64,000 nt of DNA from positions 5,835 to 69,834 of the forward strand of contig JAYUCP010000171.1 of NCBI GenBank assembly GCA_043740245.1, written 5' to 3'. A model generated the notes under the pieces. That model was not told the origin of the DNA. It saw only the letters and a program-made list of their open reading frames with translations, and made no database searches. The translations under genes and the position numbers were made by a program. This document shows positions 1 to 30,195 of the stretch, piece by piece (position 1 is the stretch's first letter; every line of letters begins with the position of its first letter). Origin of the DNA: Acidobacteriota bacterium (GTDB taxonomy: Bacteria > Acidobacteriota > Blastocatellia > RBC074).

Positions 1-132
1 GAAGCGCCGTTTGAAGTCCCCAAAAGACTCGTTGAAGAACTTCGCGGAAAAGGCAAACGGAAAAAAACAAGGAAGGTACGCAGTACTCCGCCGCCTTCCT
101 CACCTGCGGTCTGAAACGCACTGCCAGCAGCT

Positions 133-955
133 TCAGTTCGCCGCGACCGCCTTGCCGTCAAAGATGCTGATGTCCGGGCGATAACGCACCAGGCGGCGGT
201 CTTGCCGCGCGACGCTGCCCGCTGGCAGTTTGTCTATCGCGGCTTGCATTCGCGCATCCTGTGATAACGGTACATCCAACTCCGCTGGCGAAGTGAGCGG
301 GCGGAATTCAATGTAGGTGCGCACGATGTCATTGCCCAGCCGCAGCCTGGCGAACCAGCGTGCCAGATCAATGCTTTGCCGGGCCGCCGGGATAAACTCG
401 CTCCTGCGCCAGTCTTCATAGGCTTTCTCGCGTCCGGGTACGAGTTCGAGCAGGTTGAAGATCGCCCAGTCCGGCTTGCCCTGAAACTTCGCGCTGGTGA
501 AGCTGAGCGCCGGTTCGTAGCGCACGATGTAGTTGACGCTCTTCAAAGAAACGACTGTGACGCGCAAACAACGCGGCGGCGCCGTCACCCAGCGCTTTGT
601 TGATCGAACTGCTTTGTCCGATCTCGGCATAACCGCCCGGCATTGGGTTAATGGCAATCAGTTCGGTCGTATTGCCGTAGGCCGTCCCCCAGTAATCCAT
701 CCGTTTCATCCCGCCCTTGAGGCGCGCGGGGTTCAACTCGTGTTTGATGAAGCTGCCAAGCTCGGTCATGTTCGCCGGCTTCACGCGGTAAATCTGAATT
801 TGCCAAAGTTCCGTTTTGTCAGCGGGTGGCGCGAAGCTGTTGGCGCTTTGTGCGGCGGCCTGCGGGAACGCCTTGTGCATGAGCGCGGGCGTGGCGAGCG
901 CGAGCAGCAGGGCGAGGGTGATGAAGATGATTCTGGTCAAGTGCTTGGTTTTCAT
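133..955 (-). pseudogene. Secreted tandem NIPSNAP-like (dimeric alpha/beta-barrel-like) domain protein; apparent frameshift between ORF 416..955 and ORF 133..657
   Basis: AAGGAG RBS plus ATG at 955 and signal peptide MKTKHLTRIIFITLALLLALATPA in frame 416..955. The C-terminal half continues in frame 133..657. Both halves align by eye to the two domains of the 3685..4479 paralog (ELNPARLKGGMK ~ EVLPALKKAGVK; PGREKAYEDW ~ PGRAAEWEKF). The frame switch maps to ~540-550 at an A-run (caaagaaa). It could be a sequencing error rather than a true pseudogene. Confidence 0.45.
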
Positions 956-1664
956 GATGCGAGTCTCCTTGGTGATGGTTGGTGTTGTTGGTTGAAATGA
1001 AGTTGGGTTCGGCGCGTTGCAACAGCCCGCCCAGCGCCAGGTTTAGAATCTCTTCGGCAATCTGCGCGGCGTTCAAACGGCCCTGCGTGTCGTACCAGCG
1101 CGCCACCCAGAGCAGCGTGCCGAGCAAACTGAAGGCGGCGACGGTCGCGTCCAGCGCGCGCAATTTTTCTTCCTGCTGCAATTGCCGGAGCGTGTCGCGG
1201 ATCAAATCCACATACGCGCGTTTGCGCTGGTCAAGCTTGCGGCGCTGGACTTTGCTGAGGCCGCCGGTTTCATCCACGGCGATGGTGACGGGGTTGCCGC
1301 GGCCAGCGCTTTTTCCAGCGCCTTTTGTGGATGCGCCGCTGGTGATGATGCGGATGTGATTGCGGATGATGGTGCGCAAACGTGTCTCGGCATCGGGGAT
1401 GGCGCGCGCGGGCGTGACGACGTGGCGTTCCAGTTGATCCATCCCGAAACTCATGATGGCGTAAAGCAAATCCTGCTTGCCGCCGGGGATGAAGTGATAG
1501 AGCGCGGCTTTGGTCACGCCGACGGCTTCGGCGATGTCGCTCATGGACGTGGCGTCAAAGCCGCGTTCGCAAAAGAGCGCCGCCGCCGCGCGGTAAATCT
1601 GCGCGTGGCGTTTGCTCTCGGCTTCAGCAAAGATCAGGTTCTCAGTTTCCATATCGCTCTGCAC
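819..1664 (-). CDS. TetR/AcrR family transcriptional regulator
   Basis: N-terminal HTH region YRAAAALFCERGFDATSMSDIAEAVGVTKAALYHF is typical of TetR. Start is GTG at 1664 or ATG at 1652. The ORF has no in-frame stop until 819, so a low-complexity tail overlaps the next gene (start 955) by ~137 bp. Confidence 0.7.
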   Translation of the reverse strand: MQSDMETENLIFAEAESKRHAQIYRAAAALFCERGFDATSMSDIAEAVGVTKAALYHFIPGGKQDLLYAIMSFGMDQLERHVVTPARAIPDAETRLRTIIRNHIRIITSGASTKGAGKSAGRGNPVTIAVDETGGLSKVQRRKLDQRKRAYVDLIRDTLRQLQQEEKLRALDATVAAFSLLGTLLWVARWYDTQGRLNAAQIAEEILNLALGGLLQRAEPNFISTNNTNHHQGDSHHENQALDQNHLHHPRPAARARHARAHAQGVPAGRRTKRQQLRATR

Positions 1665-1671
1665 ATAGGGT

Positions 1672-1753
1672 CAAACCACGGGGGACACGGGGAACACTGG
1701 GAGGCCGCTGGTTATTGATCTTCCCCCGTGCGCCCCGTGTCCCCCATGGTTTG
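1672..1753. repeat. GC-rich palindromic element, family B copy 1 (arms built from CACGGGG heptamers)
   Basis: Left arm caaaccacgggggacacggggaacac (1672-1697) is the reverse complement of the right arm cccccgtgcgccccgtgtcccccatggtttg (1723-1753). Related copies lie at ~26064, ~46208 and ~63328. It sits immediately 3' of the TPR gene. Confidence 0.6.
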
Positions 1754-1758
1754 TGTTG

Positions 1759-2697
1759 TTAAGGTTTACTCGGCTTGACGTGGGCCAGCGGCGGTTCTAG
1801 CGGCGCTTCGTATTGCGAGGCCGGCCACTCGCCCAGCCGCAAACTCTGTTGGAAATCCGCCGCCGCCTCTGCGGCTTTGCCCAGGGCTTTGTATACGGCG
1901 CTGCGATTGAAATAGGCCAGCTTGAAATCGGGCCGCAGCTTGATCGCTTGCGTGTAGTCGGCGAGCGCGCCCGGCAGATCGCCATAAACTTTGCGCGCCA
2001 GTCCGCGATTGTTGTAAAGCTGCGGCGCGCTGGGCGCGAGCGCGATGGCCCGGTCGTAATCGCGCAAGGCTCCCTCCAAATCGAATTGGTCTTGTTTGAC
2101 GCCCGCGCGATTGTTGAGCGCCGCCACCGATTGCGGATCGAGCGCCAGCGCCTGATTGAAATCGTTGAGCGCCGCGTCATATTCCGCCAGGTTGAGCCAA
2201 GCCAGTCCGCGATTATTCCAGGCCAACGCCGACTGCGGATCGAGCGTGATGGCCCGGCTATAGTCGTTGCGCGCGGCTTCATAATCGCCTGTATTCATGC
2301 GGGCGTTGCCGCGTTTGATGGCGGCGGCCAAGTGGCGCGGGGCATAGCGCAACGCCTGCTCGAAATCGCGCAACGCCGCGTCCCACTCGCGCCAGTCGTA
2401 ACGCACCAGGCCGCGCCAGTAATAAAGCGTGGCCGGGTCAGTGCCGCTCTCGGCCTGCGGTTCGCGGCCAATGGGTACAGCAGGTACGACGGCCGCGAAA
2501 TCCTTAATGGCTTGCTCAAAGGCGGCCAGCGCGCCCGGCAGATCGCCGTTTTGATAGCGTTCGACGCCGCGTTGGAAAGCATCCGGCGTGGCGGTGCGGC
2601 GCGCTTGCTGGGCTGGCGCGGACGCGCAAACGAGCAGTAACACGCCGAACGCCGCGCCGAGCCCCAAGTGGAGTTTGGTTGCGATTTGTCTTGGCAT
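1759..2697 (-). CDS. Secreted TPR-repeat protein (paralog of 17154..18062)
   Basis: AGGAGA RBS plus ATG at 2697 and signal peptide LGLGAAFGVLLLVCASAPAQQ. Repeated A..NNRG/NNRA...G....A..DY..AI.LDP TPR units. About 55% identity by eye to the 17154..18062 product, including the shared C-terminal LEPPLA motif. Confidence 0.8.
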   Translation of the reverse strand: MPRQIATKLHLGLGAAFGVLLLVCASAPAQQARRTATPDAFQRGVERYQNGDLPGALAAFEQAIKDFAAVVPAVPIGREPQAESGTDPATLYYWRGLVRYDWREWDAALRDFEQALRYAPRHLAAAIKRGNARMNTGDYEAARNDYSRAITLDPQSALAWNNRGLAWLNLAEYDAALNDFNQALALDPQSVAALNNRAGVKQDQFDLEGALRDYDRAIALAPSAPQLYNNRGLARKVYGDLPGALADYTQAIKLRPDFKLAYFNRSAVYKALGKAAEAAADFQQSLRLGEWPASQYEAPLEPPLAHVKPSKP

Positions 2698-2788
2698 AAT
2701 TGATCTCCTGGGGATGACCCATTCAGTTGTCTTCAGTTACAATCCGTTTGCCGGCAATGACGCCGGCCGGATGATTGGAGAAAATGCG

Positions 2789-3181
2789 ATGACGACGCTG
2801 GAACAAACCATCGAAACCATCAAAGCCATGCCGCCTGCCGACCGCCGCCAACTGCGCGAATGGTTGCAGGTACAGGAACGGCCTCAGGAAGAGTTGGACG
2901 CTGCGCCGCCGCCCGCCGCAACAACCACGCCAGTCGCGCAGGCGGAAACCGTCGAGCAACAAATCGCGCGCTTCCGCAAAGCGATGGACTGGATTCATGA
3001 CCATCGCGCCGAATACTTGGGCCAATGGGTCGTGCTGGTCGGCGACCGGCTCATCAGCCACGGCTTTGACAGCCGTCAGGTTGATCAAGCAGCTAAAGCC
3101 GCTGGCATCGAAGTCCCTTTCATCGCCTTAGTGGGCGAGGAACCGGAAGCCTTCATGACCTATATGGTTGGATTACCGTGA
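2789..3181 (+). CDS. DUF5678-like small protein (tentative)
   Basis: GGAG RBS 8 nt upstream of ATG 2789. The C-terminal segment EYLGQWVVLVGDRLISHGFDSRQVDQAAKAAGIEVPFIALVGEEPEAF resembles DUF5678, assigned from memory. The stop overlaps the start of the next gene (ATGA at 3178-3181). Confidence 0.5.
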   Translation: MTTLEQTIETIKAMPPADRRQLREWLQVQERPQEELDAAPPPAATTTPVAQAETVEQQIARFRKAMDWIHDHRAEYLGQWVVLVGDRLISHGFDSRQVDQAAKAAGIEVPFIALVGEEPEAFMTYMVGLP

Positions 3182-3594
3182 TGACCTATCAACTCAGTTT
3201 CAGCGTGAGCCACGCTTACGACTCGCGCGCGGCGGACATCAACGTGCCCCTCACGCTCCGATCTGGCGCAGAGACGCGGGAAGTAACCGCCAAACTGGAC
3301 CCAGGCTCGACTTTCTGCGTCTTTCAACGCGAGGTCGGCGAAAAGCTCGGCTTCGACATCGAGCGTGGCATGCCGCAACGCATCGGCACGGCCATGGGCA
3401 GCTTTCTCGCCTACGGCCACGAAGTCACGCTGGTCACACTCGGCATTGAACTCGTCGCCACCGTCTACTTCGCTGCCGCCGAGCACTTCCCGGTCAATGT
3501 GCTGGGGCGCGTCGGCTGGTTGAATCGCCTGCGCCTCGGTCTGATTGACTACGACAGCCGCCTCTATCTGAGCGAGAACGACGATCCGGTGTAG
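3178..3594 (+). CDS. Retropepsin-like (clan AA aspartic peptidase fold) protein with atypical DPGS motif
   Basis: Translationally coupled to the upstream gene. The pattern VPLTLRSGAETREVTAKLDPGSTFCVF ... NVLGRVGWLNRLRLGLIDYDSRLYL matches the retropepsin-like layout (beta-hairpin, D-[TS]-G-[AS] position, C-terminal LLGRD.L...ID motif). Thr is replaced by Pro in the DTG position. Confidence 0.45.
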   Translation: MMTYQLSFSVSHAYDSRAADINVPLTLRSGAETREVTAKLDPGSTFCVFQREVGEKLGFDIERGMPQRIGTAMGSFLAYGHEVTLVTLGIELVATVYFAAAEHFPVNVLGRVGWLNRLRLGLIDYDSRLYLSENDDPV

Positions 3595-3611
3595 CGAGCA
3601 AAGCAGAAGGG

Positions 3612-3680
3612 GAGCGTGCGCGACCGGCGGCTCGGCATTGCGTCCATTGCCAAACTACAAGTCGCGCAACGCTCCCCGCC
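3612..3680. terminator. Bidirectional hairpin between convergent genes
   Basis: ggggagcgtgcgcgac (3614-3629) and gtcgcgcaacgctcccc (3661-3677) are near-perfect inverted repeats with a ~31-nt loop, between the 3' ends of 3178..3594(+) and 3685..4479(-). No clear U-tract. Confidence 0.35.
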
Positions 3681-3684
3681 GCAG

Positions 3685-4479
3685 TTATTTCTGCGCTGCT
3701 GGCCGGATGCTCAGTTCCGGCACGTAACGCACGACCAGCGCTTCGCGGTGCGCCACTACTCCGGCAGGCGGCGCGGTCGCCAGGTTCAATTCGGCCTGCG
3801 CTTTGGCCAGCGCCTGTGCAAACTTAAGCCCGTCGGCATAGGAATCGAACAGCAAGAGTGTGCGGTATTCATCCGTATCACCGCCGAACGCGACCTTGCC
3901 CGCTAACACGCCTTTGATACCGGCTTTCTTAGTTGCCGGCAGAAGGTTTTCTTTGACAAACTTTTCCCACTCGGCGGCGCGACCGGGCATCACGATGGTC
4001 TTGATCGAAGTCGCCAACTTCATCGGTTCGCTCGAAGCCGGCGCAATGCCCAGATCGGGCCGGCCTTGCGAGACGTAGCTACGCCATTCCGCCAGCAGCC
4101 GTCCCTGCTTGTTGTTGAGCGCCCGTGCGCCCTCTTCGCCCAACGCCTTGACGAGCGGCGTGGGTTCGTCAAGCTGCGCAAAATTCTCCAGCGCCGCCGA
4201 GATGATGACCCACTGGCGCACATCGCCCTGGACTACCTGCAGTACGGTCTGCTGCTTGACCCCGGCTTTCTTCAATGCCGGCAGCACTTCATTCTTGTAG
4301 AGCGTTTGCCATTCGGCACTCACCCCCGGATTCGTTTTGATCACTTGCACGCGGTAAAACTGCGGCGCGGGCGGTTGAGTTTGGGCGAACGTGAATGACG
4401 CGAGCGCGGCGGCCAGCAGCAGGCCGAACAGCGCGGCGCGTGTAAATTGCGAAATTGATTGATGAACTACGTGTGGCAT
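3685..4479 (-). CDS. Secreted tandem NIPSNAP-like domain protein (paralog family)
   Basis: AAGGAG RBS plus ATG at 4479. Leader MPHVVHQSISQFTRAALFGLLLAAALASFTFAQ is nearly identical to the giant protein leader. Two internal repeats (..NPGVSAEWQTLYKNEVLPALKKAGVK.. and ..MPGRAAEWEKFVKENLLPATKKAGIKG..). Confidence 0.7.
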   Translation of the reverse strand: MPHVVHQSISQFTRAALFGLLLAAALASFTFAQTQPPAPQFYRVQVIKTNPGVSAEWQTLYKNEVLPALKKAGVKQQTVLQVVQGDVRQWVIISAALENFAQLDEPTPLVKALGEEGARALNNKQGRLLAEWRSYVSQGRPDLGIAPASSEPMKLATSIKTIVMPGRAAEWEKFVKENLLPATKKAGIKGVLAGKVAFGGDTDEYRTLLLFDSYADGLKFAQALAKAQAELNLATAPPAGVVAHREALVVRYVPELSIRPAAQK

Positions 4480-4570
4480 GGTTTTGGTCTCCTTGAAATG
4501 AACGAGGGTTGGTGGTTGCGCGGCGGGTGCGTTACGCGCCGCGTTGAAACAAGCGCCTGGATACTGGCGC

Positions 4571-7500
4571 TCAGGGTTGTTTGGCCGTGATGGGCGTGTC
4601 GCCGGTTTGTCCGTGGGCGCGGGTCATAACCGAACCGGTGCGGCTGAGCCTGACGTACCAGTTGCTGTCGCGCGCGCGCCAGACGGCGACATCGGCCCTG
4701 CCGTCACCGTCGTAATCGCCCGGCACCGGCACGTCGCCCAGCGCCGCTGTGCCCCAGGCAAAGGCCTGAACCTCGTCGTCGCTGCTGCGCAAGACGTACC
4801 AGTTGCCCTCCGCGCCGCGCCAGACGGCAATATCGGCCTTCCCATCGCCGTCGTAATCGGCCGCCACGGGGATGTCTGTCCCCAGGCCCCAGGGCCGCGC
4901 GATAACTTGTCCGTCGGAGCTTTGCTTGATGTACCAGTAGCCGGTCGCCTGGCGGAAAACAGCCACGTCGGTCTGGCCGTCGCCGTCGAAGTCGGCGGGC
5001 ACCGGCACGTCGCGGTAAGGGGCAGTGCTGACGCCCCATGAAATGGTTTGCACCTGCTGATCGGAACTGCGCCCCGAGTAGAGGATGTACCAGTTGCTTT
5101 CCGCGCCGCGCCAGACGGCGATGTCGGTCTGGCCGTCGCCGTCATAATCGCCCGGCACCGGAATATCCGTCCCCAGGCCCCACAGCTTTGAAATCACCGC
5201 GCCGTCACGGCTGCACTTGATGAACCACATGCCGGTCGAGCGGCGGAAAACCGCCAGGTCCATTTTGCCGTCGCCGTCGTAATCGCCCGCCACCGGCACG
5301 TCGAAATACGGCGCGGCGCTTGATCCCCACAGTTCAGCGCGCACGCTGGCGGCGTTGCTCTCCAGCATCAGCCATTCGCCCGTCTGGCCGCGCCAGACCG
5401 TGAGATCGGCTTGGCCGTCGCCGTCGAAGTCACCGAAAACCAGCGACTGCGCCGCCAGGCCGTTACCATTCCCGCCCGTGTGGATAACGATCTGGCCGCC
5501 GCCCAGTACGGTGGTCGGGTCGGCGCTGTCGGGCGCATTCATCTGGTTGTCGTAGACGAGGCCGCCGCCGTTGTTGTTCCAAATCCTGATGCGGAACTTA
5601 TCCTGCCCGCCGCCGCCAGACTGCTGCCCGTCAATGGCCGTCAGGATGAAGCGGTAATCGCCCGTGTTATTGATCGTGCCCGCGCCTTTGTATTGCGCCC
5701 GCGCACCGGCCACGACCAGCCACTCGTAAAGCGTGCTGTGGAAGTTGAGATTGGCGAGCGCGAATTGGAACTCGGTCTCGCCGGTCGGAATGGTGGCGCC
5801 TTTCTTGTACTTCGAGACGAAGCCGAAGCTGGCTTTGCCGGTCAACGACGGGTTAGGGGGATAGGCGCCCGGCGGTGAGACGATCCAGCCGCCGCCCGTG
5901 ACAAATCCGGCGCTTGGGTCATAGACCACGACGAGTGCTGTCAGCCCGCCGCTGGTGATGGCTGTGCCTTGTCCGCCGCAGCCATTGCTGACCGTCAGCG
6001 TCACCTGATAAACGCCTGCCTCTGTGAAGGTATGACTGGCGCTGACCGTGCCCGCCGCCTCATTCACCACGCCGGGTTGCGTGCCGGCGTCGAAGCTCCA
6101 GGTCGCGCTGTGCGTCCCGCCCGCCGCATCTGTAAACGCGCCGGTGAAGTTCACTGCCGTGCCCACCGGATAGATGGAGCCGCTGGGCGGACTGGTGATG
6201 CTCACCACGGGCGTCGCGCAACCGCCGCCGACGGTCAACGCCGCCGGGTTGGAAGTCAGCGCGCCGCACGCGCCCGTCACCACCACGTCGTAATTGCCCG
6301 CGTCCGCCGCCGTGACCGCAGCAATTGTGTAACTGCTGGCGGTCGCGCCGCTGATGGCCGCGCCGTTCTTGCGCCATTGATAATTCAGGCTCGCGCCCGT
6401 GGCCGTGACCGCGAAAGCCACGCTCTGGCCCGCGTTCGCGGTTTGGCTGGCGGGCTGCGCGCTAATGGCCGTCGCCGGATTGACCGTCAGCGTGGCCGCG
6501 CTGGACGTAACCGTGCCGCAAGCGCCGGTGACGACTACATCGTAACTGCCCGCCTGCGCCGCCGTGGCTGACGCCAGGTTATAGCTCGCCGCAGTCGCGC
6601 CGCTGATGTTCACGCCGTCCTTGCGCCACTGATACGACAGGCCCGCGCCCGCCGCCGTCACGCTGAAGCTGGCCGGCGCGCCCGCACAGACGGTGGCGCT
6701 TTGCGGTTGCGTGCTGATGGCCGTCGTGGTGTTGACCGTCAGCGTGGCTGCGCTCGACGTGACCGTGCCGCAAGCGCCGCTGACAATCACGTCATACGCC
6801 GCCGCGTCACCAGCCGTCACCTGATTGATGGTGAAGCTGGCCGCCGTCGCGCCGCCGATGTTCACGCCGCCTTTGCGCCATTGATAGCTCAGGCTTGCGC
6901 CAGTCGCCACGACGCTAAAGGTTGCCGCCGCGCCCGCGCACACGGTTTGATTGGCGGGTTGTGTGTTGATGGCGGTCGTTGTGTTGACGGCCAGCGACGC
7001 GGCGCTTGAAGTCGTGCTGCCGCACGCGCCAGTTACCACCACATCGTAGCTGGCGGCATCGGCTGCGTTCGCCGTCGCGATGGTGAAGCTGCTGCCGTTC
7101 GCACCGCTGATGTTCACGCCGCCTTTGCGCCATTGATACGTCAAGCCAGTGCCGCTGGCAGCGACACTGAATGTTGCTGATGTGCCCGCGCACACGGTTT
7201 GATTCGCCGGTTGCGTGTTGATGGCCGTTGTCGCATTGACCGTCAGCGTGACCGCGCTCGAAGTCACGCTGCCGCAGGTGCTGTTTACGATGACATCGTA
7301 ATTGCCCGCGTCGGCGGCGCTGACGGGATTGATGGTCAGGCTGGCGACGTTTGCGCCGCCAATGTTGACGCCGCCTTTGCGCCATTGATACGTGACCGTG
7401 CCCGCGCCGCTGGCCGCTACGCTGAAGGTCGCCGCGCCGCCGGGGCAGGCGGTTTGACTGGCGGGTTGGGTGTTGATGGCCGTGGCCTCGGTGAGCGTCA

Positions 7501-10500
7501 GGCTGGCCGCAGCGGACGTGACGCTGCCGCACGCGCCGCTGACGACGACATCATAGCTGCCCGCGTCGCCCGCCGTGACGGCGGCGAGAGTGAGCGTGCT
7601 GCCGTTCGCGCCGCCGATATTCACGCCGCCCTTGCGCCACTGATAAGCCAGGCTCGTGCCCGTCGCATTGACTGCGAACGTGACCGCGCCGCCGAGACAC
7701 GACGCCTGATTCGTAGGCTGTGCATTGATGGCCGTTGTGGCGTTGACGGTCAAGGTTGCGGCGCTTGAAGTCAGCACGCCGCACGCGCCGCTGACAACCA
7801 CCTCATAGTTGGCGGCATCGGCTGCCGTGGCTGCGGCGATGGTGAAGCTGCCGCCGTTTGCGCCGTTGATGAGATTGCCGTTCTTGCGCCATTGATACGT
7901 CAGGTTCGTGCCTGTGGCCGTCGCGCTGAACGTCGCCGGCGTGCCCGCGCATACAGTTTGACTCGTTGGTTGCGTGTTGATGGCCGTTGCCGCATTGACT
8001 GTCAACGTGGCAACAGTCGAGGTCACGCTGCCGCACGCGCCACTGACGACCACGTCGTAACTCGCCACATCCGCAGCCGAGGCATTGGCGATGATGAAAC
8101 TGCTGCCCGTCGCGCCGCCAATGTTCACGCCGCCTTTGCGCCATTGATAACTCAGGCTTGCGCCCGTCGCCGCGACGCTGAAGCTTGCCGCCGCGCCCGC
8201 GCACACGGTTTGATTGGCGGGTTGTGTGTTGATGGCGGTCGTCGTGTTGACGGCCAGCGACGCGGCGCTTGAAGTCACGCTGCCGCACGCGCCGCTGACG
8301 ACCACATCATAGCTCGCCGCATCCGCAGCCGTGGCGGCGGGGATGGTGAAGCTGCTGCTGTTCGCGCCGTTGACGCTCGCGCCGTCCTTGCGCCATTGAT
8401 ACAGCAGGTTCGTGCCGGTGGCCGCCACGCTGAAGGTTGCCGGCGTGCCCGCGCAGACGGTTTGATTGGCCGGTTGTGTGTTGATGCTGGTCAGCGCATT
8501 GACTGTCAGCGTCGCCGCAGTTGAAGTCAACGTGCCGCACGCGCCGCTGACCACCACGTCATAGCTGGCGGCATCGGCTGGCGTGACGCCGGCAATCGCA
8601 TAGCTGCTGCCGTTTGCGCCGCCGATATTCACGCCATCTTTGCGCCATTGGTACGTCAATGCTGTGCCGCTGGCCGCTACGCTGAAGGTTGCGGCTGTGC
8701 CCGTGCATAGAGTTTGACTCGTTGGTTGCGTGTTGATGACTGTTGCCGCATTGACTGTCAACGTGGCAACAGTCGAGGTCACGCTGCCGCACGCGCCAGT
8801 CACGACTACATCGTAATTGGCGGCCTGCGCCGCTGTGGCTGTGGCAATCGTGAAGCTGCTGCCCGTCGCGCCGCCGATGTTCACGCCGTCATTGCGCCAT
8901 TGATAGGTCAGGTTCGTGCCGGTCGCGGTTACGGCCAAGCTCGCCGTTGCGCCGTTGCAGACGGTTTGACCGGCGGGTTGCGCAGTGATGGCCGTCACGG
9001 CATTGACGCTGAGCGTCGCCGTCGCGGAAGCCGTTGTGCCGCAGCCGTTGCTGGCCTCCACCGTGTAACCGCCCGCGTCAGCCGCTTGGGCATTGCTGAT
9101 GGTCAGCGTCGTGCCGGTCGCACCGGCAATGAAGCTGCCGTCTTTCTTCCACTGATAGCCGGTCGCGCCCGTCGCCGTGACGCTGAACGTGGCCGTGCCG
9201 CCCGCGCACAGCATCTGGCTGGCGGGTTGCGCGCTGATGACCGGTGCGGTGTTGACGATCAGCGTCGCGGCATTCGAGCTGACTGTGCCGCAGGTGTTGA
9301 CGACATCCACCGTGTAAGCGCCCGCATCGCCCGGTTGCGCGTTGTTGATGATGAGCGTGGCAGCGTTTGCGCCGCTGATGGCCGCGCCGTTCTTGCGCCA
9401 TTGATAATTCGTCGCACCCGTCGCGCTGACGCTGAAGGTGGCTGTGTCGCCAGCGCAGACCGTAGCGGCGACGGGTTGCGCCGTGATGGTTGGCGGATTG
9501 TTGACCGTCAACGTGGCCGCTGTTGAAACGACGCTCGCGCCGCAGGCATTGACCACGACGACATCGAAGAGCGCGCCGTTGTCGGCGGCGGTCACTGTCG
9601 GCGTGGTGTAACTGTTGTTCGTCGCGCCCGCGACGTTCACGCCGTTCTTGCGCCATTGATAGCTGAGCGTGCCGTTACTGGCGGTGACGACGGCGGTGAA
9701 CGTCGCGGCTTGGCCCGGACAGACCGTTTGATTGGCCGGTTGCGTAGCGATGACCGCCGTGCCTTCAGTGTAGTGCGCAAAAAACTGCGCTTGCTGGCCG
9801 CCCGCCGTCGTGAAATTGCCGCCGAGATAAAGCTGGCCGCCCGCCGCCGCCAGCGCCGTGCCGACCGCGCTTGAATTATTGAAACCGCCGCCCAGTCCGC
9901 TGCCCACGGCTGACCAGGTATTGTTGAGGGCATTCCAACGCGCCAGTTCGTTGACGCCGGTCAAGCCGCCGGCAATGGTGAAATCGCCCGTCGCGTAAAT
10001 TGAATTCCCGCTCACGGCCAGCGCGTAGACGGTGTGGCTGGGGATGCCGCTGCCCAGCGCCGACCACGTTGAAGTGCTCTCGTTCCATTTGGCGATGCTG
10101 GCGGCCGGCGCGCCGCCCGCGCTGGTGAAGGTGCCGCCCACATAAAGCTCGTTGCCGCGCACGGCCAGCGCGCGCACGGTGTTGGACTGCAAGCTGGGGC
10201 CGATGCCGCTGCCCAGCGCCGACCACGCGCTGCCGTTCCATTTGGCGATGCCGTTCGCGATGACGCCGCCCGCCGTGTCGTACCGCCCGCCCAGATAGAG
10301 GTTGTTCCCGCTCACCGCCAGTGCAAACACAAAGCTAAAGCTGCCGCCGATGCCGCTGCCCAACGCCGACCACGCGCTGCCGTCCCACTTGGCAATGCCG
10401 CTGGCCGGAAAGAAGGTGGTGCAGGCGGCATTGCTGCAAGCCGTGGTGAAGCTGCCACCGGCATAAACGTCATTGCCGCTGATGGCGATGGCATGCACAG

Positions 10501-12238
10501 TGCCGCCGCCGGAGGTGAGGCCGCCCAACAGCGCCACCCAACTCGTCCCATTCCATTTCGCGATGCCTCTGGTTGTCCCCTCGCTGGCGGTAATCGTGAA
10601 AGCCCCGCCCGCATATACGTCGCCGTTGGCGCTCACCGCAATCGCGCGAACCTCAGAGCCGGCGCCGCCCGCGAGGCCGTTGCCGAGCGCCGACCATTGC
10701 GTGCCGTCCCATTTGACGATGTTGTTGGCGGTGACGCCGCCCGCCACGGCGAACTGGCCGCCGACGTAAACATCAGCGCCGTGTATCGTGACCGCCGCGA
10801 TGTAGGGCGGAATGTTGCTGCTGCCGTATGAAGTGAAGATCGCCTTGCCGCCGCCGCCCAGCGCCGCCCACGCCGCGCCATTCCAGCGCGCCAGGTTGCT
10901 CACATTCGGCCCGCCCACGCCGCGAAAATCGCCGCCCACATAAAGGTCGCCGCCCGTGGCCGCCAGTGCATAAACAGCCACGACTAAGTTCGTCCCGCTG
11001 GCCGCCACACCGTTGCTGAGCGCCGCCCAGCTTGTGCCATTCCACTCCGCGATGTTGTTCACGGTCACGCCGCCCGCCGTCACAAAGCTGCCGCCCGCCG
11101 CGAGATTGCCGCCGCGCACCGCCAGCGCCCTGACCTTGAGCGAGTCGCTCAAGTTCGCGCCCAAGCCGCTGCCGAGTGCCGCCCACGCGCTGCCGTTCCA
11201 GCGTGCCAGACGGCTGGCGCTGACGCCGCCAATCGTGGTGAAGCCACCCCCCGCGACGAGTTCGCCGTTGTAAAACGCCAAGGCATAAACCGTGGCGCTC
11301 GCGCCCGTGCCCAGCGCCGTCCACGCGCTGCCGTCCCAACGCGCCACGCGATTCACCGTCACCCCGCCCGCCGCCGTGAAATCGCCGCCCGCATAAAGCT
11401 CCGCGCCGTTGAGCGTCAGCGCGAAGACCTGTCCTGCAAAAGGCGGCGCTGTCAGGCCCGGGCCGAGCGCCGCCCACGCGCTGCCGTTCCAGAGCGCGAT
11501 ATTATTCACGGTCACGCCACCCGCTGTGCTGAAGACGCCGCCGACGTAAACATTCGCGCCGCTGATGGCGATGGCGCTGACGTTCGGATTGAAAGCCGAA
11601 CTCAGTCCTGTTCCCAAAGCCGACCAAGTGCTGCCGTTCCATTTAGCTATCCCTTTGATGGCCGCGCCACCCGCCGTCGTGAATGTGCCGCCCGCATACA
11701 CGTCGTTGCCGCTCACGGCCAGCGCCAGCACGTCGCTGCCGAGACCGCTGCCCAGCGCCGACCACGCGCTGCCGTTCCATTTGGCGATGCGGTTGGCGCT
11801 GAGCGTGCCGACCAGCGTGAACGTCCCGCCGATATAAATGTCGCCCGTCGCGCTGACGGCTACGGCATTGACTTGGCCGACGGGGCCGGGCGCGTAAAAC
11901 TGCGTGTCCCAGTTTTCATCGCAGGTGGCAGCCGGAGCCGCGCTCGCCAGAAAGCGCGGCGCGCCATTGGCGGCCAACGCCATGCGCCAACCGCGCGCGT
12001 CGAAGCTGCCGCGCAAGTCCGGCGCGCCTTTCAGCGTGCCATCCGCATTGAGCAGGCCCGGATTGAGCGCCGTTGCCAAGGACGCGGATGCGCCGGGCCG
12101 CAGTGACGGCGCGTCCTGTGTCGCCCCGGCCTGGCGCGGCGTGAAGCTGAAGGTTGCGAACACGCTGGCGGCCAGCAGCAGGCCGAGCAGGGCAGCGCGT
12201 GTGAAGGGCGCTGATGGTTGGTGAAATACGCGAGGCAT
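4571..12238 (-). CDS. Giant secreted surface/adhesin-like protein (~2556 aa): Kelch-like propeller repeats, 14 Ig-like repeats, PKD-like domain, C-terminal FG-GAP/VCBS propeller
   Basis: AAGGAG RBS plus ATG at 12238 and signal peptide. The N-terminal third has ~50-aa repeats YAGG.F..AGGV..NNIAKWNGS.WSALG.G. Then 14 repeats of ~84 aa (..TQPANQTVCAG..ATFSV.ATG..L.YQWRK.GVNIGGA..S..TI...TAADA..YDVVV.GACG.VTS..A.LTVN). Then a PKD-like segment. Then ~7 repeats of GDYDGDG.DIAVWR....WY. Confidence 0.85.
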   Translation of the reverse strand: MPRVFHQPSAPFTRAALLGLLLAASVFATFSFTPRQAGATQDAPSLRPGASASLATALNPGLLNADGTLKGAPDLRGSFDARGWRMALAANGAPRFLASAAPAATCDENWDTQFYAPGPVGQVNAVAVSATGDIYIGGTFTLVGTLSANRIAKWNGSAWSALGSGLGSDVLALAVSGNDVYAGGTFTTAGGAAIKGIAKWNGSTWSALGTGLSSAFNPNVSAIAISGANVYVGGVFSTAGGVTVNNIALWNGSAWAALGPGLTAPPFAGQVFALTLNGAELYAGGDFTAAGGVTVNRVARWDGSAWTALGTGASATVYALAFYNGELVAGGGFTTIGGVSASRLARWNGSAWAALGSGLGANLSDSLKVRALAVRGGNLAAGGSFVTAGGVTVNNIAEWNGTSWAALSNGVAASGTNLVVAVYALAATGGDLYVGGDFRGVGGPNVSNLARWNGAAWAALGGGGKAIFTSYGSSNIPPYIAAVTIHGADVYVGGQFAVAGGVTANNIVKWDGTQWSALGNGLAGGAGSEVRAIAVSANGDVYAGGAFTITASEGTTRGIAKWNGTSWVALLGGLTSGGGTVHAIAISGNDVYAGGSFTTACSNAACTTFFPASGIAKWDGSAWSALGSGIGGSFSFVFALAVSGNNLYLGGRYDTAGGVIANGIAKWNGSAWSALGSGIGPSLQSNTVRALAVRGNELYVGGTFTSAGGAPAASIAKWNESTSTWSALGSGIPSHTVYALAVSGNSIYATGDFTIAGGLTGVNELARWNALNNTWSAVGSGLGGGFNNSSAVGTALAAAGGQLYLGGNFTTAGGQQAQFFAHYTEGTAVIATQPANQTVCPGQAATFTAVVTASNGTLSYQWRKNGVNVAGATNNSYTTPTVTAADNGALFDVVVVNACGASVVSTAATLTVNNPPTITAQPVAATVCAGDTATFSVSATGATNYQWRKNGAAISGANAATLIINNAQPGDAGAYTVDVVNTCGTVSSNAATLIVNTAPVISAQPASQMLCAGGTATFSVTATGATGYQWKKDGSFIAGATGTTLTISNAQAADAGGYTVEASNGCGTTASATATLSVNAVTAITAQPAGQTVCNGATASLAVTATGTNLTYQWRNDGVNIGGATGSSFTIATATAAQAANYDVVVTGACGSVTSTVATLTVNAATVINTQPTSQTLCTGTAATFSVAASGTALTYQWRKDGVNIGGANGSSYAIAGVTPADAASYDVVVSGACGTLTSTAATLTVNALTSINTQPANQTVCAGTPATFSVAATGTNLLYQWRKDGASVNGANSSSFTIPAATAADAASYDVVVSGACGSVTSSAASLAVNTTTAINTQPANQTVCAGAAASFSVAATGASLSYQWRKGGVNIGGATGSSFIIANASAADVASYDVVVSGACGSVTSTVATLTVNAATAINTQPTSQTVCAGTPATFSATATGTNLTYQWRKNGNLINGANGGSFTIAAATAADAANYEVVVSGACGVLTSSAATLTVNATTAINAQPTNQASCLGGAVTFAVNATGTSLAYQWRKGGVNIGGANGSTLTLAAVTAGDAGSYDVVVSGACGSVTSAAASLTLTEATAINTQPASQTACPGGAATFSVAASGAGTVTYQWRKGGVNIGGANVASLTINPVSAADAGNYDVIVNSTCGSVTSSAVTLTVNATTAINTQPANQTVCAGTSATFSVAASGTGLTYQWRKGGVNISGANGSSFTIATANAADAASYDVVVTGACGSTTSSAASLAVNTTTAINTQPANQTVCAGAAATFSVVATGASLSYQWRKGGVNIGGATAASFTINQVTAGDAAAYDVIVSGACGTVTSSAATLTVNTTTAISTQPQSATVCAGAPASFSVTAAGAGLSYQWRKDGVNISGATAASYNLASATAAQAGSYDVVVTGACGTVTSSAATLTVNPATAISAQPASQTANAGQSVAFAVTATGASLNYQWRKNGAAISGATASSYTIAAVTAADAGNYDVVVTGACGALTSNPAALTVGGGCATPVVSITSPPSGSIYPVGTAVNFTGAFTDAAGGTHSATWSFDAGTQPGVVNEAAGTVSASHTFTEAGVYQVTLTVSNGCGGQGTAITSGGLTALVVVYDPSAGFVTGGGWIVSPPGAYPPNPSLTGKASFGFVSKYKKGATIPTGETEFQFALANLNFHSTLYEWLVVAGARAQYKGAGTINNTGDYRFILTAIDGQQSGGGGQDKFRIRIWNNNGGGLVYDNQMNAPDSADPTTVLGGGQIVIHTGGNGNGLAAQSLVFGDFDGDGQADLTVWRGQTGEWLMLESNAASVRAELWGSSAAPYFDVPVAGDYDGDGKMDLAVFRRSTGMWFIKCSRDGAVISKLWGLGTDIPVPGDYDGDGQTDIAVWRGAESNWYILYSGRSSDQQVQTISWGVSTAPYRDVPVPADFDGDGQTDVAVFRQATGYWYIKQSSDGQVIARPWGLGTDIPVAADYDGDGKADIAVWRGAEGNWYVLRSSDDEVQAFAWGTAALGDVPVPGDYDGDGRADVAVWRARDSNWYVRLSRTGSVMTRAHGQTGDTPITAKQP
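6221..9751. repeat. 14 tandem 252-bp coding repeats (Ig-like domains) with high nucleotide identity
   Basis: 84-aa protein repeats counted 14 times (YQWRK motif). Spurious antisense ORFs in the six-frame track recur with exact 252-bp spacing (7551, 7803, 8307, 8559 and so on). Confidence 0.8.
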
Positions 12239-12365
12239 AGCAGTCTCCTTGGTTGGCTCTTTGTGTAGTTGTGATTGAAAGTGAATGAATAGGCAGCGCC
12301 GCGCACTGCGTCGCCGCACAGGTTGAGCGCGCGCCGGTGCGGTACGCGCGCGCGGTATATGGAAA

Positions 12366-12580
12366 ACACACCAAGATGTCGGGTGCGGAGAGCCAGCGGT
12401 ACGGAACCGGGAGCGACCGGGTGCCCCCGAGTAGGTCTAACGCGGAGTCACCCGGTCGCTATCGCTCGCGGTTCCGTACCGGCGCATTCCGTGCATCTTG
12501 GTGTAGCGTTTCTATAGCGACCTGGCGCCTCCGAATGCGCACAACGCGGAGTCACCAAGTCGCTACCGCTCCTCGTACCG
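12366..12580. repeat. Nested intergenic palindrome plus direct repeat
   Basis: acaccaagatg (12368-12378) pairs with catcttggtgt (12496-12506). cggtacggaaccgggagcgaccgggtg (12399-12425) pairs with cacccggtcgctatcgctcgcggttccgtaccg (12450-12482). A direct partial copy aacgcggagtcacc..gtcgcta.cgctc recurs at 12543-12580. It lies between the 12595 gene stop and the giant-gene start. Confidence 0.5.
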
Positions 12581-12594
12581 TATCAGGCAGCCAC

Positions 12595-13440
12595 TCACTG
12601 CACTTGATCCACGAGCGTCAGCACTTGTGTGCGCACGGTTTTGCGCGCGGCGTTGCTTTGCGCCGTCGCGTCAGCGATGTTCACGCCCGGCAGCACCTTG
12701 GCGGTGAGTTCCGGCGGATATTGCGTTTCGAGTTGCGCGAACTTGTCGAAGAAGCTGATTGAGATCAGGCCGTAATCCCGCTCAGTCCCGCCGGGGTAGC
12801 GCACGGCAAACCGTTGCCAGCCCCTTTGCATGCCGCGTTTGACGCGTTCCTCGTGCAGCGGCTTCCAGTATTTGGCGATCAAGGCGGTGTATTCCGCGCC
12901 CTTGCCCGGCTCCACCTTTTGAAAATTGATCTCGGCCACGGGCGGCAGCGGTTGCGGGTTGAGCGCCGTGCTGTCGAGCAGCGTGACCAGCTCCGAGCGC
13001 ACCAGGCGGATCAGCCCACGCGAACGCGCCAGGAGTTCGGTGGCGGTCGTGTTCGGAAAGACCTTGGTGAAAATCGCCGCTGGATAAGGCGTTTCGACAT
13101 CGGCGAACTTGTCGAAAGTCGTGATGGTGACCCGGTCGTATTCGCGGGCGGCGCCGCCGGGAAAGCGCACGTTCCACACCGACCAGGATTTGATGATGCC
13201 CTGTTTGACGCGCTCGCGTTGGATGGGCAGATAAGCCTCTTGTTCCAGCTTGCGATACTCCGCGGCTTTGCCCGGTTCGAATTTGAAATACTCGAACAAG
13301 GCGTATTTCGGCCCCGTCGGCGAGGCGAGTTGCCCTTGCGCTTGACTGCGGTTGAGCAGGCTTGGCGCGCAAAGCGTGAGCAGCACAAACAACGCGAGCC
13401 ACAACGAACGATGCGAGCCTTGGTGAATTCCGTGTGTCAT
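12595..13440 (-). CDS. Secreted tandem NIPSNAP-like domain protein (paralog of 13507..14358)
   Basis: AAGGAG RBS plus ATG at 13440 and signal peptide. Two ~125-aa internal repeats carrying F.KVEPGK.AEY....YW.P...ERV..G...W.....RYPGG..R(E/D)Y..(I/V)....FDKF. This is the NIPSNAP-like pattern, assigned from memory. Confidence 0.75.
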   Translation of the reverse strand: MTHGIHQGSHRSLWLALFVLLTLCAPSLLNRSQAQGQLASPTGPKYALFEYFKFEPGKAAEYRKLEQEAYLPIQRERVKQGIIKSWSVWNVRFPGGAAREYDRVTITTFDKFADVETPYPAAIFTKVFPNTTATELLARSRGLIRLVRSELVTLLDSTALNPQPLPPVAEINFQKVEPGKGAEYTALIAKYWKPLHEERVKRGMQRGWQRFAVRYPGGTERDYGLISISFFDKFAQLETQYPPELTAKVLPGVNIADATAQSNAARKTVRTQVLTLVDQVQ

Positions 13441-13506
13441 GATTTTTCTCCTTGTTGGGTTGTGATTGAAATTGAAGGTAAGTGAAGCACTGCGACATGC
13501 GGCCGC

Positions 13507-14358
13507 TCACTGCACGTAATCGCCCAGCGCCAGCAACTCCGTCCGCACCTGCCGGCGCGCCGCATTCGTCTGGGCGCTGATGTCGGCGTATTTGAGGCCC
13601 GGATGCACCTTCTCCAGAATGCCCGCCGGCAGCGCCTCCATCTGTTCGAACTTGTCGAAGAGGTCCACCGAGACGTGGCTGTATTCACGGTCAGAGCCGC
13701 CGGGGAAGCGCAACGCGGTCAGCGCCCAGCCGCACATGCCGCCGCGCGTGATGCGCTCCTGCCAGAGCGGTTTCCAGTATTTGCGCGAGATTTCAACGTA
13801 GGCCGGCCCTTTGCCCGGCTCCGTTTTCATGAAGTTCAGACTCATGAATTTCGGCAACGCGGTGGGCTGAATGCTGTCGAGCACCTGCACCACTTCGCTG
13901 CGCACCATCTTGCGCAGCGAGCCGGTGTAAGCCAGCACGTCCGCCATTTTTTTCTCCGGGTGTTCCTTGGCGAAGCTGGCGAAGACCGCCGGCGGATAGG
14001 GCGTTTCGAGATCCGTGAACTTGTCGAAGGTAGTGATGAGCACCACGTCGTATTCGCGGGCCAGGCCGCCGGGGTAGCGCACGAGCCACTGCCACCACGC
14101 GCGGATCGCCCCGGCCTTGATGCGCTCGCGGTGAATCGGCATCCAGACGTCGCGTTCGTCCTTGCGATAGTCGGCGTTCTTGCCCGGCTCGATCTTCAGG
14201 TATTCCAGCAGGGCGAATTTCGGCGGCGCGGCCTGTGTGGCTTGTGCCGGAGTTTGCGGATAGGCGCGCTGCATCAGGCGCGGCGTGCAAAGCGCGAGCA
14301 GCACGAGCAACGCGAAACAAAGCGCGCGGATCGAGAAGCGGTGAATTACGTGTGTCAT
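13507..14358 (-). CDS. Secreted tandem NIPSNAP-like domain protein (paralog of 12595..13440)
   Basis: AGGAGA RBS plus ATG at 14358 (leader MTHVIHRFSIRALCFALLVLLALCTP). The ORF extends upstream to 14442 but without an RBS. Clear paralogy to 12595..13440 across both domains. Confidence 0.75.
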   Translation of the reverse strand: MTHVIHRFSIRALCFALLVLLALCTPRLMQRAYPQTPAQATQAAPPKFALLEYLKIEPGKNADYRKDERDVWMPIHRERIKAGAIRAWWQWLVRYPGGLAREYDVVLITTFDKFTDLETPYPPAVFASFAKEHPEKKMADVLAYTGSLRKMVRSEVVQVLDSIQPTALPKFMSLNFMKTEPGKGPAYVEISRKYWKPLWQERITRGGMCGWALTALRFPGGSDREYSHVSVDLFDKFEQMEALPAGILEKVHPGLKYADISAQTNAARRQVRTELLALGDYVQ

Positions 14359-14488
14359 GGTTTTGATCTCCTGGTTGGTTCGGTTGTGATTGTGGGCAAA
14401 TGAATGTGCGGCGGGTGCGGAAACGGCACGGCGGGCGGCCATCCGCCCAGCTTGATGCCGTTACTTCGCCGCCGCGCTTGCAATCGCG

Positions 14489-15034
14489 CTAAGGCGTTCC
14501 GAAGCGCTTCTTCATCTCGGCGTCAATCTCCAGCAGTGTGAAAACTTGCGTCGGGCTGCCTGCGGGACGGAACTGCACGTGGGGGAAGTCCTTCAGCTTT
14601 TTGAATAATCCGCCCGGCGTCAGGCCCAGCTTCTGCGCCTCTTCGACGTAGACCCGATAGCCGTTCTGGCCTTTCACCAGTTTGCTGATGGAAAATTCCG
14701 CCTTGCCGTCCACCAGCCAGAAACAGTCCATGGCTTCACCCCACTGATGCCAGGACAAACCGGGCGGAGCGTCGGTGACGTGACCGCCGTGCTGCGGCCC
14801 GACGCTCTCCAGACAATGCGCCAGAAAATCAGCGCCGGCGGACTGCAAGTCTTTGATCTTTGCTTTGATCTCTCCGCCGGGGCGGGCTTGCCGCCAGAGC
14901 CGGGCCTGCTCGAACGGATCGCGCAGCGTCTGGCTCGGGCGCATCTCGATGCCTCTGGCCAGACAGTTTTTCAAAAGCTCTTTGGCAATAGGTCTGAGTT
15001 TCGGAATCAGGTCGTTGATGTCTCGTGATGCCAT
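14489..15034 (-). CDS. Peptidase M15 family (VanY / L-alanyl-D-glutamate endopeptidase-like) zinc peptidase
   Basis: GAGGGG RBS plus ATG at 15034. Motif SWHQWGEAMD fits the LAS/M15 S.H..G.A.D zinc-ligand signature. Size ~180 aa. Confidence 0.7.
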   Translation of the reverse strand: MASRDINDLIPKLRPIAKELLKNCLARGIEMRPSQTLRDPFEQARLWRQARPGGEIKAKIKDLQSAGADFLAHCLESVGPQHGGHVTDAPPGLSWHQWGEAMDCFWLVDGKAEFSISKLVKGQNGYRVYVEEAQKLGLTPGGLFKKLKDFPHVQFRPAGSPTQVFTLLEIDAEMKKRFGTP

Positions 15035-15064
15035 AACATTCCCCTCTTTGGTTTGGAACAAACG

Positions 15065-15898: not shown

Positions 15899-16179
15899 CT
15901 CGTGATTCCCCTTTCGTTAGTGCAGCGTTATCGGTGGTGAATACTTGCTGCGGACTTTGGTTGTTAGCGCCACCTGCCCCGCCACAATGCTCGGTTAAAA
16001 ACCGCCGTCATCCCGGTAGCGCAAACTGTTAGTTTGCGGTTCTTCAGGGCACGGCGCGCGCGTCATTGCGCGGCGTGCCAGCAACGCTTGGGCGCGACAC
16101 ACGAGCGCTTCAGACGTCGGGCTGCGCGCCGCTCTCTGACCACGCGCTTGCCGTGCCCTGAACAACACGGCCCGCGCGT

Positions 16180-30074: not shown

Positions 30075-30195
30075 ATCGGATTTCAATTCGGTATACGGGA
30101 AATTGGTGGGACGATTTGGCTAATCGTCCCACCGGCTTCCTGGCCTGATTCAGCAGTTCAGTTTGACCGGCTGACTTGTAGGAAGAGAGGGATAC

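Follow-up and report, generated by a model that had tools for sequence, protein, structure and literature searches.

A 64,000-nucleotide stretch of DNA from an uncultured soil bacterium of the Blastocatellia, phylum Acidobacteriota (hereafter, the window) carries four paralogous genes, which we denote A to D, clustered around a gene for a giant exported protein. The reading that we favour, with a probability of roughly 0.7, is that A to D encode tandem-duplicated, Sec-exported pseudo-dimers of the dimeric alpha/beta barrel (Dabb) type that share a CA-rich 5′ module, and that 5′ ends were exchanged with the giant gene. The four genes would then be tandem duplicates, three intact and one recently frameshifted, of a large uncharacterised Sec-exported family, and the mature protein would be an internal duplication of one ferredoxin-like unit whose two halves pack as a pseudo-dimer. 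The arrays would have expanded in one Blastocatellia clade, where a conserved 5′ module would be followed by an ordinary Sec hydrophobic region (h-region) and an AxA-type cleavage site. Recombination among neighbouring genes would have swapped the 5′ ends, giving the giant protein a B-type signal peptide. The fold, the internal duplication, the paralogy, the export signals, the size and distribution of the family, and the conservation of the module together with its low RNA structure are the well-supported parts of this reading.

Four paralogous genes around a giant gene

All relevant genes in the region that runs from gene A to a GH19 enzyme gene are located on the minus strand. Gene B (3685–4479) encodes 264 residues with the putative signal peptide MPHVVHQSISQFTRAALFGLLLAAALASFTFA, followed by QTQ, gene C (12595–13440) encodes 281 residues with MTHGIHQGSHRSLWLALFVLLTLCAPSLLNRSQA, followed by QGQ, and gene D (13507–14358) encodes 283 residues with MTHVIHRFSIRALCFALLVLLALCTPRLMQRAYPQTPAQA, followed by TQ. 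The giant gene (4571–12238), located between B and C, specifies 2555 residues, and its leader MPRVFHQPSAPFTRAALLGLLLAASVFATFSFTPRQAGA is followed by TQ. Gene A (133–955) belongs to the B-like subfamily and is frameshifted; its signal peptide begins MKTKHLTRIIFITLALLLALATPALMHKAFPQAAAQ. A preliminary description of this DNA had reported these four genes, the frameshift in A and a giant gene among the paralogs, all of which we confirmed. No further family members, and no other genes with the MTHxxHQ-type leader discussed below, were detected elsewhere in the window. Proteins 100% identical to the products of B, C and D occurred in NCBI and ENA assemblies, the database protein P0046 being identical to the D product, and the nearest named homologues were annotated as 'MAG: Acidobacteria/Blastocatellia bacterium', where MAG stands for metagenome-assembled genome.

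For comparison we used related loci, labelled L001 and so forth, of which L001 is from the MAG GCA_016196035.1. The coding sequence of A is split over two frames, 416–955 and 133–657, while an intact orthologue of 273 residues is found at L001:3385–4206 (80% nucleotide identity, 72–85% amino acid identity). Alignment to this orthologue placed the frame-breaking indel near window position 537, and a second assembly contained the identical A sequence with the same frameshift. Since the indel is located at a non-homopolymer site and recurs in the second assembly, gene A is probably a recent pseudogene.

The four proteins are predicted to be internally duplicated pseudo-dimers

The products of C and D are 50% identical, while B is 24–28% identical to A, C and D, and on this basis we assign the proteins to two subfamilies, A/B and C/D. 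Profile–profile comparison of the B and C families, each represented by a 52-sequence alignment, connected them with a probability of 98.6% (E 5.7e-16 over 190 columns). Within each protein, domain 1 proved homologous to domain 2, with hhalign E-values of 9e-53 in the C family and 3e-22 in the B family. This verified the earlier proposal that each protein consists of a signal-like N-terminus and two copies of one domain. The pattern EPGK..EY..P..ER..YPGG..FDKF, which had been put forward for all four, was recovered in C and D, but not in A and B, which form a divergent subfamily.

AlphaFold2 produced confident models for C and B, with predicted local distance difference test (pLDDT) scores of 88.4 and 92.4, respectively. 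In both models, a helix at the N-terminus leads through a disordered linker to two beta-alpha-beta-beta-alpha-beta units, and the ferredoxin-like domains are located at residues ∼39–145 and ∼152–258 of B and at ∼44–160 and ∼165–281 of C. The two units pack sheet to sheet into a barrel that is recognisably like known Dabb members. At the fold level, the models thus identify A to D as intramolecular 'dimeric alpha/beta barrels', that is, predicted pseudo-dimers of the Dabb superfamily.

Membership of a named family was a separate matter. With the Pfam NIPSNAP model (PF07978), B and A reached 17.5 and 17.7 bits, respectively, against a gathering cut-off of 22.3, and no match was obtained for C or D. 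The Pfam Dabb model (PF07876) matched only D, at the chance level of 12.4 bits (cut-off 25, E 0.26), and C had no match in Pfam at all. NIPSNAP matches were, on the other hand, obtained for 23 of 52 B-family homologues at E ≤ 0.01, the best at 1.3e-8. The A/B subfamily therefore appears to be NIPSNAP-related in a borderline sense, with A and B of the window not qualifying as members, and NIPSNAP membership of C and D is unsupported. The resemblance to NIPSNAP and Dabb domains that had been noted earlier thus holds for the Dabb superfamily at the fold level and, distantly, for A/B with respect to NIPSNAP, but all of the window proteins remain below the cut-offs of both Pfam models.

The most similar architectures are those of the Protein Data Bank (PDB) entries 2pgc, 3mcs, 3f44, 3gn6 (CT0912) and 5f9p and of sulfur oxygenase reductase (6qpa), which are likewise tandem ferredoxin-like pseudo-dimers with unknown or oxygenase-like functions. 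In contrast to these, the window proteins carry Sec signal peptides; sequence identity is 4–12%, without a match at the sequence level. Sulfur oxygenase reductase has what we take to be an iron site and active-site Cys residues, and these have no counterpart among the conserved columns of the family. The solved bacterial NIPSNAP proteins (5k9f and 5ixu) are single-domain chains of ∼100 residues, and eukaryotic NIPSNAPs are directed to the mitochondrial matrix, unlike the present family, which is exported past the cytoplasmic membrane. Secreted proteins with the same half-barrel fold are known in the ovorubin perivitellins (PDB 9uaj), ovorubin presumably being a carotenoid carrier. Unlike the window family, however, these are animal proteins, and they are 6–10% identical over the ∼150 residues that align.

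One enzymatic assignment was considered for C and D, namely that they are periplasmic sugar anomerases of the L-rhamnose mutarotase type. Weak matches to the rhaM model (PF05336) were found in 11 of 52 C-family homologues (best E 9.6e-5), some distant homologues bear the JGI label 'L-rhamnose mutarotase', and the beta1-alpha1 motif PG...EY....W.P is similar. Neither C nor D of the window was matched by the rhaM profile, however, and hhalign gave a probability of only 0.5% for the C family against Escherichia coli RhaM. In that alignment, which is unreliable, His22 of RhaM, which we take to be its catalytic His, faces a Glu. Membership of the rhamnose mutarotases was rejected on the profile and hhalign results, and a function of this type seems highly improbable.

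Export is the rule in a large family

To identify signal peptides, we relied on inspection and a hydrophobicity heuristic only, looking for a positively charged n-region, a hydrophobic h-region of 10–17 residues and small residues at positions −3 and −1. By inspection, all five leaders (A to D and the giant) have the features of a Sec/signal peptidase I signal peptide: a single Arg precedes a hydrophobic stretch of 12–17 residues, and small residues occupy positions −3 and −1. The candidate signal peptidase I sites lie between TFA and Q in B, SQA and Q in C, AQA and T in D, AAA and Q in A, and AGA and T in the giant protein. A twin-arginine (Tat) signal peptide (S/T-R-R-x-F-L-K) was rejected, as FTRAAL contains a single Arg and RR is absent from all five leaders. 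A lipoprotein lipobox ([LVI][ASTVI][GAS]C) was rejected as well, as C has L-T-L-C and D has L-A-L-C, both with Leu at position −1. In A, Ala stands in place of the Cys, and many orthologues lack this Cys as well; some paralogs elsewhere do carry LTAC (L001:6230).

A profile search of 1.84 billion cluster representatives (50% identity) returned 2282 matches at E ≤ 1e-3, 1066 at E ≤ 1e-10 and 328 at E ≤ 1e-30. Nearly all of the matched representatives were 250–290 residues long and covered the profile end to end. A hydrophobic N-terminal segment was present in 121 of the 129 full-length top representatives, and a few had lipoboxes. The idea that export is odd for these domains because such domains are normally cytoplasmic is at variance with this, export being the rule in the family. 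When one genome per species was scanned, 48 loci with family genes were found, most of them in Acidobacteriota (Blastocatellia, Bryobacteraceae and Solibacter) and some in gammaproteobacterial MAGs. Arrays of two to seven paralogs were confined to close Blastocatellia relatives, with seven in L001, while outside this group the gene was single-copy and located in unrelated contexts. The exported tandem architecture occurs in other genomes, and with 48 loci and more than 1,000 clusters it cannot be called unusual. Judging by these matches, it is the ordinary form of the family and is common in soil metagenomes. Our literature searches turned up no account of secreted tandem NIPSNAP-like proteins in Acidobacteria.

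The giant protein carries a leader of the B type

The pattern MP(H/R)V(V/F)HQ....FTRAAL(F/L)GLLLAA is common to the leaders of B and the giant protein. Their alignment score of 88 was reached by only 0.014% of the 7140 null pairs, which were formed from the signal peptides of 120 diverse members of the family. At the DNA level, 57 of 72 nucleotides are identical (79%), with a local score of 44, whereas the maximum was 15 when the B leader was compared with 200 windows taken from elsewhere in the giant gene. Past the cleavage site, B and the giant protein are unrelated. The other leaders are less alike. C and D share with B just an MTHxIH(Q/R) n-region (scores of 40–41, reached by ∼2–3% of the null pairs), and the leaders of the giant and C or D did not differ from the null. 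Gene A starts with MKTKH, and its h/c-region resembles that of D, with a score of 65 that was reached by 0.1% of the null pairs. More distant orthologues of both subfamilies, from sister Blastocatellia, have ordinary MKR.. or MKSNH.. leaders. The leader core M-[PT]-H-V-[VI]-H-Q...FTRAAL, originally ascribed to all these proteins, therefore stands for B and the giant, but shrinks to MTHxIH in C and D and is not found in A, which has a different n-region.

These comparisons bear on the possibility that the likeness of the leaders reflects generic signal peptide composition, with plain paralogy behind the clustering and nothing shared at the 5′ ends. The scores of B against C and D, and of the giant against C and D, are compatible with this view. 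The score and DNA identity of the B–giant pair contradict it, as do the conservation of the 5′ untranslated region (UTR), which was detected with a profile of non-coding sequence only, and the low structure of all five initiation regions, both described below. Generic composition is thus a very unlikely explanation.

The Pfam domains of the giant protein are a Rax2-like beta-propeller, ∼11–14 Ig-like domains, a PKD domain and C-terminal FG-GAP repeats, which makes a role at the surface or as an adhesin plausible. An orthologue (59–88% identity) was found only in L001, where it is again located between C and B, while in L005, L006 and L009/L053 gene C is directly followed by B without a giant gene. 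Among the paralog leaders, those of the B type and an 'E type' resemble the giant leader most, one example being ...FTRAALLGLMLVAAAFALFSFTPRQ of P0145. The simplest account would be that the giant gene was inserted into the array and gained, or exchanged, a family 5′ end. The earlier suggestion that whole 5′ ends were duplicated is supported, as the giant gene has a 5′ UTR and a signal peptide that are both homologous to their counterparts in family members, the remaining protein being unrelated.

A CA-rich, unstructured module precedes all five genes

All five genes have a CA-rich, G-poor 5′ UTR and a strong Shine-Dalgarno sequence, AAGGAGA. In C, D, the giant gene and, in shortened form, B, the module reads TTCA(Y)TT..TTCAATTTCAATCACAACCCAACAAGGAGAAAAAYC, followed by ATG ACA CAC nnn wTT CAC CAA, which encodes MTHx[IVF]HQ. 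CA-rich first codons are present in all five genes except A with its MKTKH start. The modules all lie on the minus strand, and for each we give the folding energy of the region from −35 to +36. In front of C (13441–13487) the sequence is TTCACTTACCTTCAATTTCAATCACAACCCAACAAGGAGAAAAATC, with no G from −45 to −12 (nhmmer E 1e-7; −2.2 kcal/mol), and in front of D (14359–14405) it is TTCATTTGCCCACAATCACAACCGAACCAACCAGGAGATCAAAACC (−3.2 kcal/mol). The module of the giant gene (12239–12290) is TTCATTCACTTTCAATCACAACTACACAAAGAGCCAACCAAGGAGACTGCT, which was matched by the UTR-only nhmmer profile at E 0.003 and folds at −6.7 kcal/mol. That of B (4480–4520) is CAACCACCAACCC..TTCATTTCAAGGAGACCAAAACC (−3.3 kcal/mol), and that of A (956–1003) comprises TTCATTT, the CA-rich tract CAACCAACAACACCAACCA at 976–994 and AAGGAGA (−4.0 kcal/mol).

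Orthologues and additional paralogs in L001, L004, L005, L006, L055 and L057 have the same module in front of them. In ∼0.8 Mb of loci, a profile of the non-coding 45 nucleotides alone matched just family genes and the giant gene, a single weak match (E 5) lying upstream of a further family paralogue in L005. The G content from −45 to −12 was 0–15% in the five genes, compared with a median of 30% in 23 other genes of the window (p=0.001). The energies of the −35 to +36 region, with a mean of −3.9 kcal/mol, contrasted with a control mean of −13.6 kcal/mol, and each of the five initiation regions had less structure than any of the 21 controls (p=0.0004). Codon usage showed the same bias: Thr codon 2 was ACA in 15 of 15 leaders, compared with 11.6% of the Thr codons in the gene bodies, and G made up 10% of codons 2–7, compared with 34% in the gene bodies. 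As the shared codons consist of C and A only and the conservation continues into the non-coding UTR, we read MTHxxHQ as the peptide shadow of a translation initiation region. It would best be read as a by-product of RNA-level selection, among the paralogs, for a CA-rich, unstructured initiation region with a strong Shine-Dalgarno sequence, and not as a sorting motif. We infer that the module drives efficient translation initiation of abundant envelope proteins, and possibly their co-regulation.

The preliminary description had also raised the possibility of a dedicated N-terminal sorting signal, which would route the barrels and the giant protein to one destination, such as the outer surface. 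Between subfamilies the leaders are indeed more conserved than the mature domains (the D–A and B–giant scores given above), a leader of this kind is present on the non-homologous giant, and orthologues from six genomes have kept it. However, the conserved block begins ∼45 nucleotides upstream of the ATG, in non-coding sequence, its conserved residues are specified by CA-only codons with synonymous sites conserved as well, and the n-region occurs together with either of two distinct h/c-regions. Moreover, the sister Blastocatellia orthologues make do with ordinary leaders, the loci contain no twin-arginine motif, canonical lipobox or conserved candidate processing enzyme, and within the available loci the leader was confined to family genes and the giant. 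We therefore consider a dedicated sorting signal unlikely, and selection on the initiation region remains our preferred reading of the motif.

C/A-rich elements near ribosome-binding sites have been described as translation enhancers and as targets of small RNAs (sRNAs) in enterobacteria (PMC3879156). Like the C/A-rich enhancers in GcvB targets (PMC3879156), the present module has a CA-rich, G-poor tract directly upstream of the Shine-Dalgarno sequence in mRNAs for exported envelope proteins. It differs from the enterobacterial GcvB targets in that CA-richness also extends just past the AUG and in that the host is an acidobacterium. A GU-rich counterpart of the CA tract was not found in the window outside the antisense strand, nor was an sRNA partner. 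By analogy, the module, composed of the UTR and the first seven codons, might be the post-transcriptional operator of a small envelope-protein regulon in one Blastocatellia clade, an idea that we consider speculative and rather doubtful. Such a regulon would consist of the tandem-barrel paralogs and the giant Ig/FG-GAP protein, and its effector could be a GU-rich sRNA or an RNA-binding protein. If so, the module would be movable between genes by recombination, as a portable 'expression and export cassette'.

Neighbouring genes

A TetR-family regulator gene (990–1664, minus strand; Pfam TetR_N and TetR_C_24) is a conserved neighbour of the arrays within this clade, and its orthologues adjoin family genes in L001, L005, L006, L055 and L057. 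We infer from this a regulatory link between TetR and the family genes. In the window, the TetR open reading frame has no stop before gene A and extends to position 819 through the 5′ UTR and signal peptide region of A, overlapping A at 819–955. In L001, TetR has 248 residues and is followed by an extra paralog (L001:1029–1865) without a counterpart in the window. The read-through, together with the absence of this paralog, suggests a deletion in the window lineage. A dienelactone hydrolase and an extracytoplasmic function (ECF) sigma factor are also syntenic.

The next gene encodes a TPR protein (1759–2697, minus strand). Between it and B, two overlapping plus-strand genes encode a DUF5678 protein (2789–3181) and a retropepsin-like aspartyl protease (Asp_protease_2; 3178–3594). 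DUF5678 genes recur near the arrays, with two copies in L001 and a faint match in L056, and the pair may be a small mobile or toxin–antitoxin-like unit tied to rearrangements.

On the 5′ side of D, a VanY/M15 peptidase gene (14489–15061) and a gene for a PG_binding_1+GH19 enzyme (15065–15898) follow on the minus strand. Both enzymes are endolysin-like and lack a signal peptide; no holin or secretion system was seen, and their orthologues occur inside the L052/L015 and L008 arrays. This arrangement could mean that A to D are periplasmic immunity proteins against neighbouring signal-less peptidoglycan hydrolases, and that the arrays are immunity gene arrays. Immunity genes often form divergent tandem arrays, and the present proteins are exported and encoded in such arrays. 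In four genomes a family gene has a hydrolase gene immediately on its 5′ side and in the same orientation, namely GH19 plus VanY in the window and L052 (L052/L015), VanY in L008 and Amidase_2 in L053/L009. However, the gene that follows the orthologous VanY differs in subfamily, being D in the window and B in L052 and L008, and the arrays of L001, L005, L006 and L055 have no hydrolase. Furthermore, Bryobacteraceae and gammaproteobacterial MAGs have single copies beside unrelated genes, and secretion system genes were not seen in the window. An immunity function is accordingly quite improbable.

Farther along, the space between the GH19 gene and the gene for another TPR protein (17154–18062) is occupied by a minus-strand gene (16180–17067) whose 295-residue product has a signal peptide but matches nothing in Pfam. 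The plus-strand gene at 21194–24487 encodes a STAND-like protein of 1097 residues, in which many WD40 repeats come after an AAA_35 NTPase domain, and an orthologue is located near the L055 array. Genes for the small and large subunits of a NiFe hydrogenase are found at 29136–32052 (plus strand).

The 353-nucleotide spacer between C and the giant gene (12242–12594) contains long hairpin-like stretches, with chance-level matches to miRNA models at 12397–12481 and 12503–12572 (minus strand), and a GC hairpin at 12293–12309 lies just upstream of the CA-rich UTR of the giant gene. These hairpins could be terminators or belong to a promoter region. An Rfam scan of positions 1–16000 returned no credible RNA family, and a scan for sigma-70 promoters and terminators gave matches at chance level only.

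Discussion

The conservation pattern offers some indication of what the proteins might do. In both halves of C and D, W-x-P-I-H-x-E-R in helix 1, R-x-P-G-G...R-E-Y in the beta2–beta3 hairpin and F-D-K-F are conserved. The location of this polar constellation at the usual Dabb pocket suggests one polar pocket per half-barrel, so that each chain would have two ligand or active sites. In A and B, the conserved positions include Lys, Glu and Gly but neither His nor Cys. With low confidence, we propose that A to D are abundant periplasmic or surface proteins that bind small molecules, or cofactor-independent enzymes.

Several points weigh against the overall reading of A to D as exported pseudo-dimers that share a 5′ module with the giant gene. 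The window proteins score below the Pfam NIPSNAP and Dabb cut-offs, and neither whole-protein nor single-domain profiles matched the sequence of any solved structure in the PDB above chance level. The signal peptide calls rest on inspection and the hydrophobicity heuristic, the controls for the module were drawn from one 64-kb window with crudely called start codons, and high expression is deduced from sequence features. The leader transfer could have run from a family gene to the giant or in the reverse direction. Searches for further copies of the leader found none: a protein search with a 42-column leader alignment against a 5.8-billion-protein database yielded nothing at E ≤ 10, the query being too short, and two DNA scans of metagenome contigs, one for the junction of Shine-Dalgarno and MTH and one for the degenerate M-[TP]-x-x-[VIF]-[HR]-Q-x4-F-T-R-[AV]-A-L, gave 0 matches each. 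Finally, the biochemical function cannot be read from the sequence, and a conserved His or Cys, which might have hinted at metal or haem chemistry, is absent from the B-type subfamily.

Nothing in these findings overturns current knowledge. The fold superfamily was already known, the family itself being uncharacterised, and apart from the start module the locus is ordinary. In soil, the Acidobacteriota belong to the most abundant bacteria, and the majority of the proteins that they export lack annotation. For one such family, with a C/D subfamily that lacks a Pfam model, the present analysis assigns a predicted Dabb pseudo-dimer fold, an export status and a size of more than 1,000 clusters at 50% identity. 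The start module on the non-homologous giant gene would represent a concrete example of 5′-end exchange between neighbouring genes, and it may serve as a strong expression and export signal in acidobacterial genetics.

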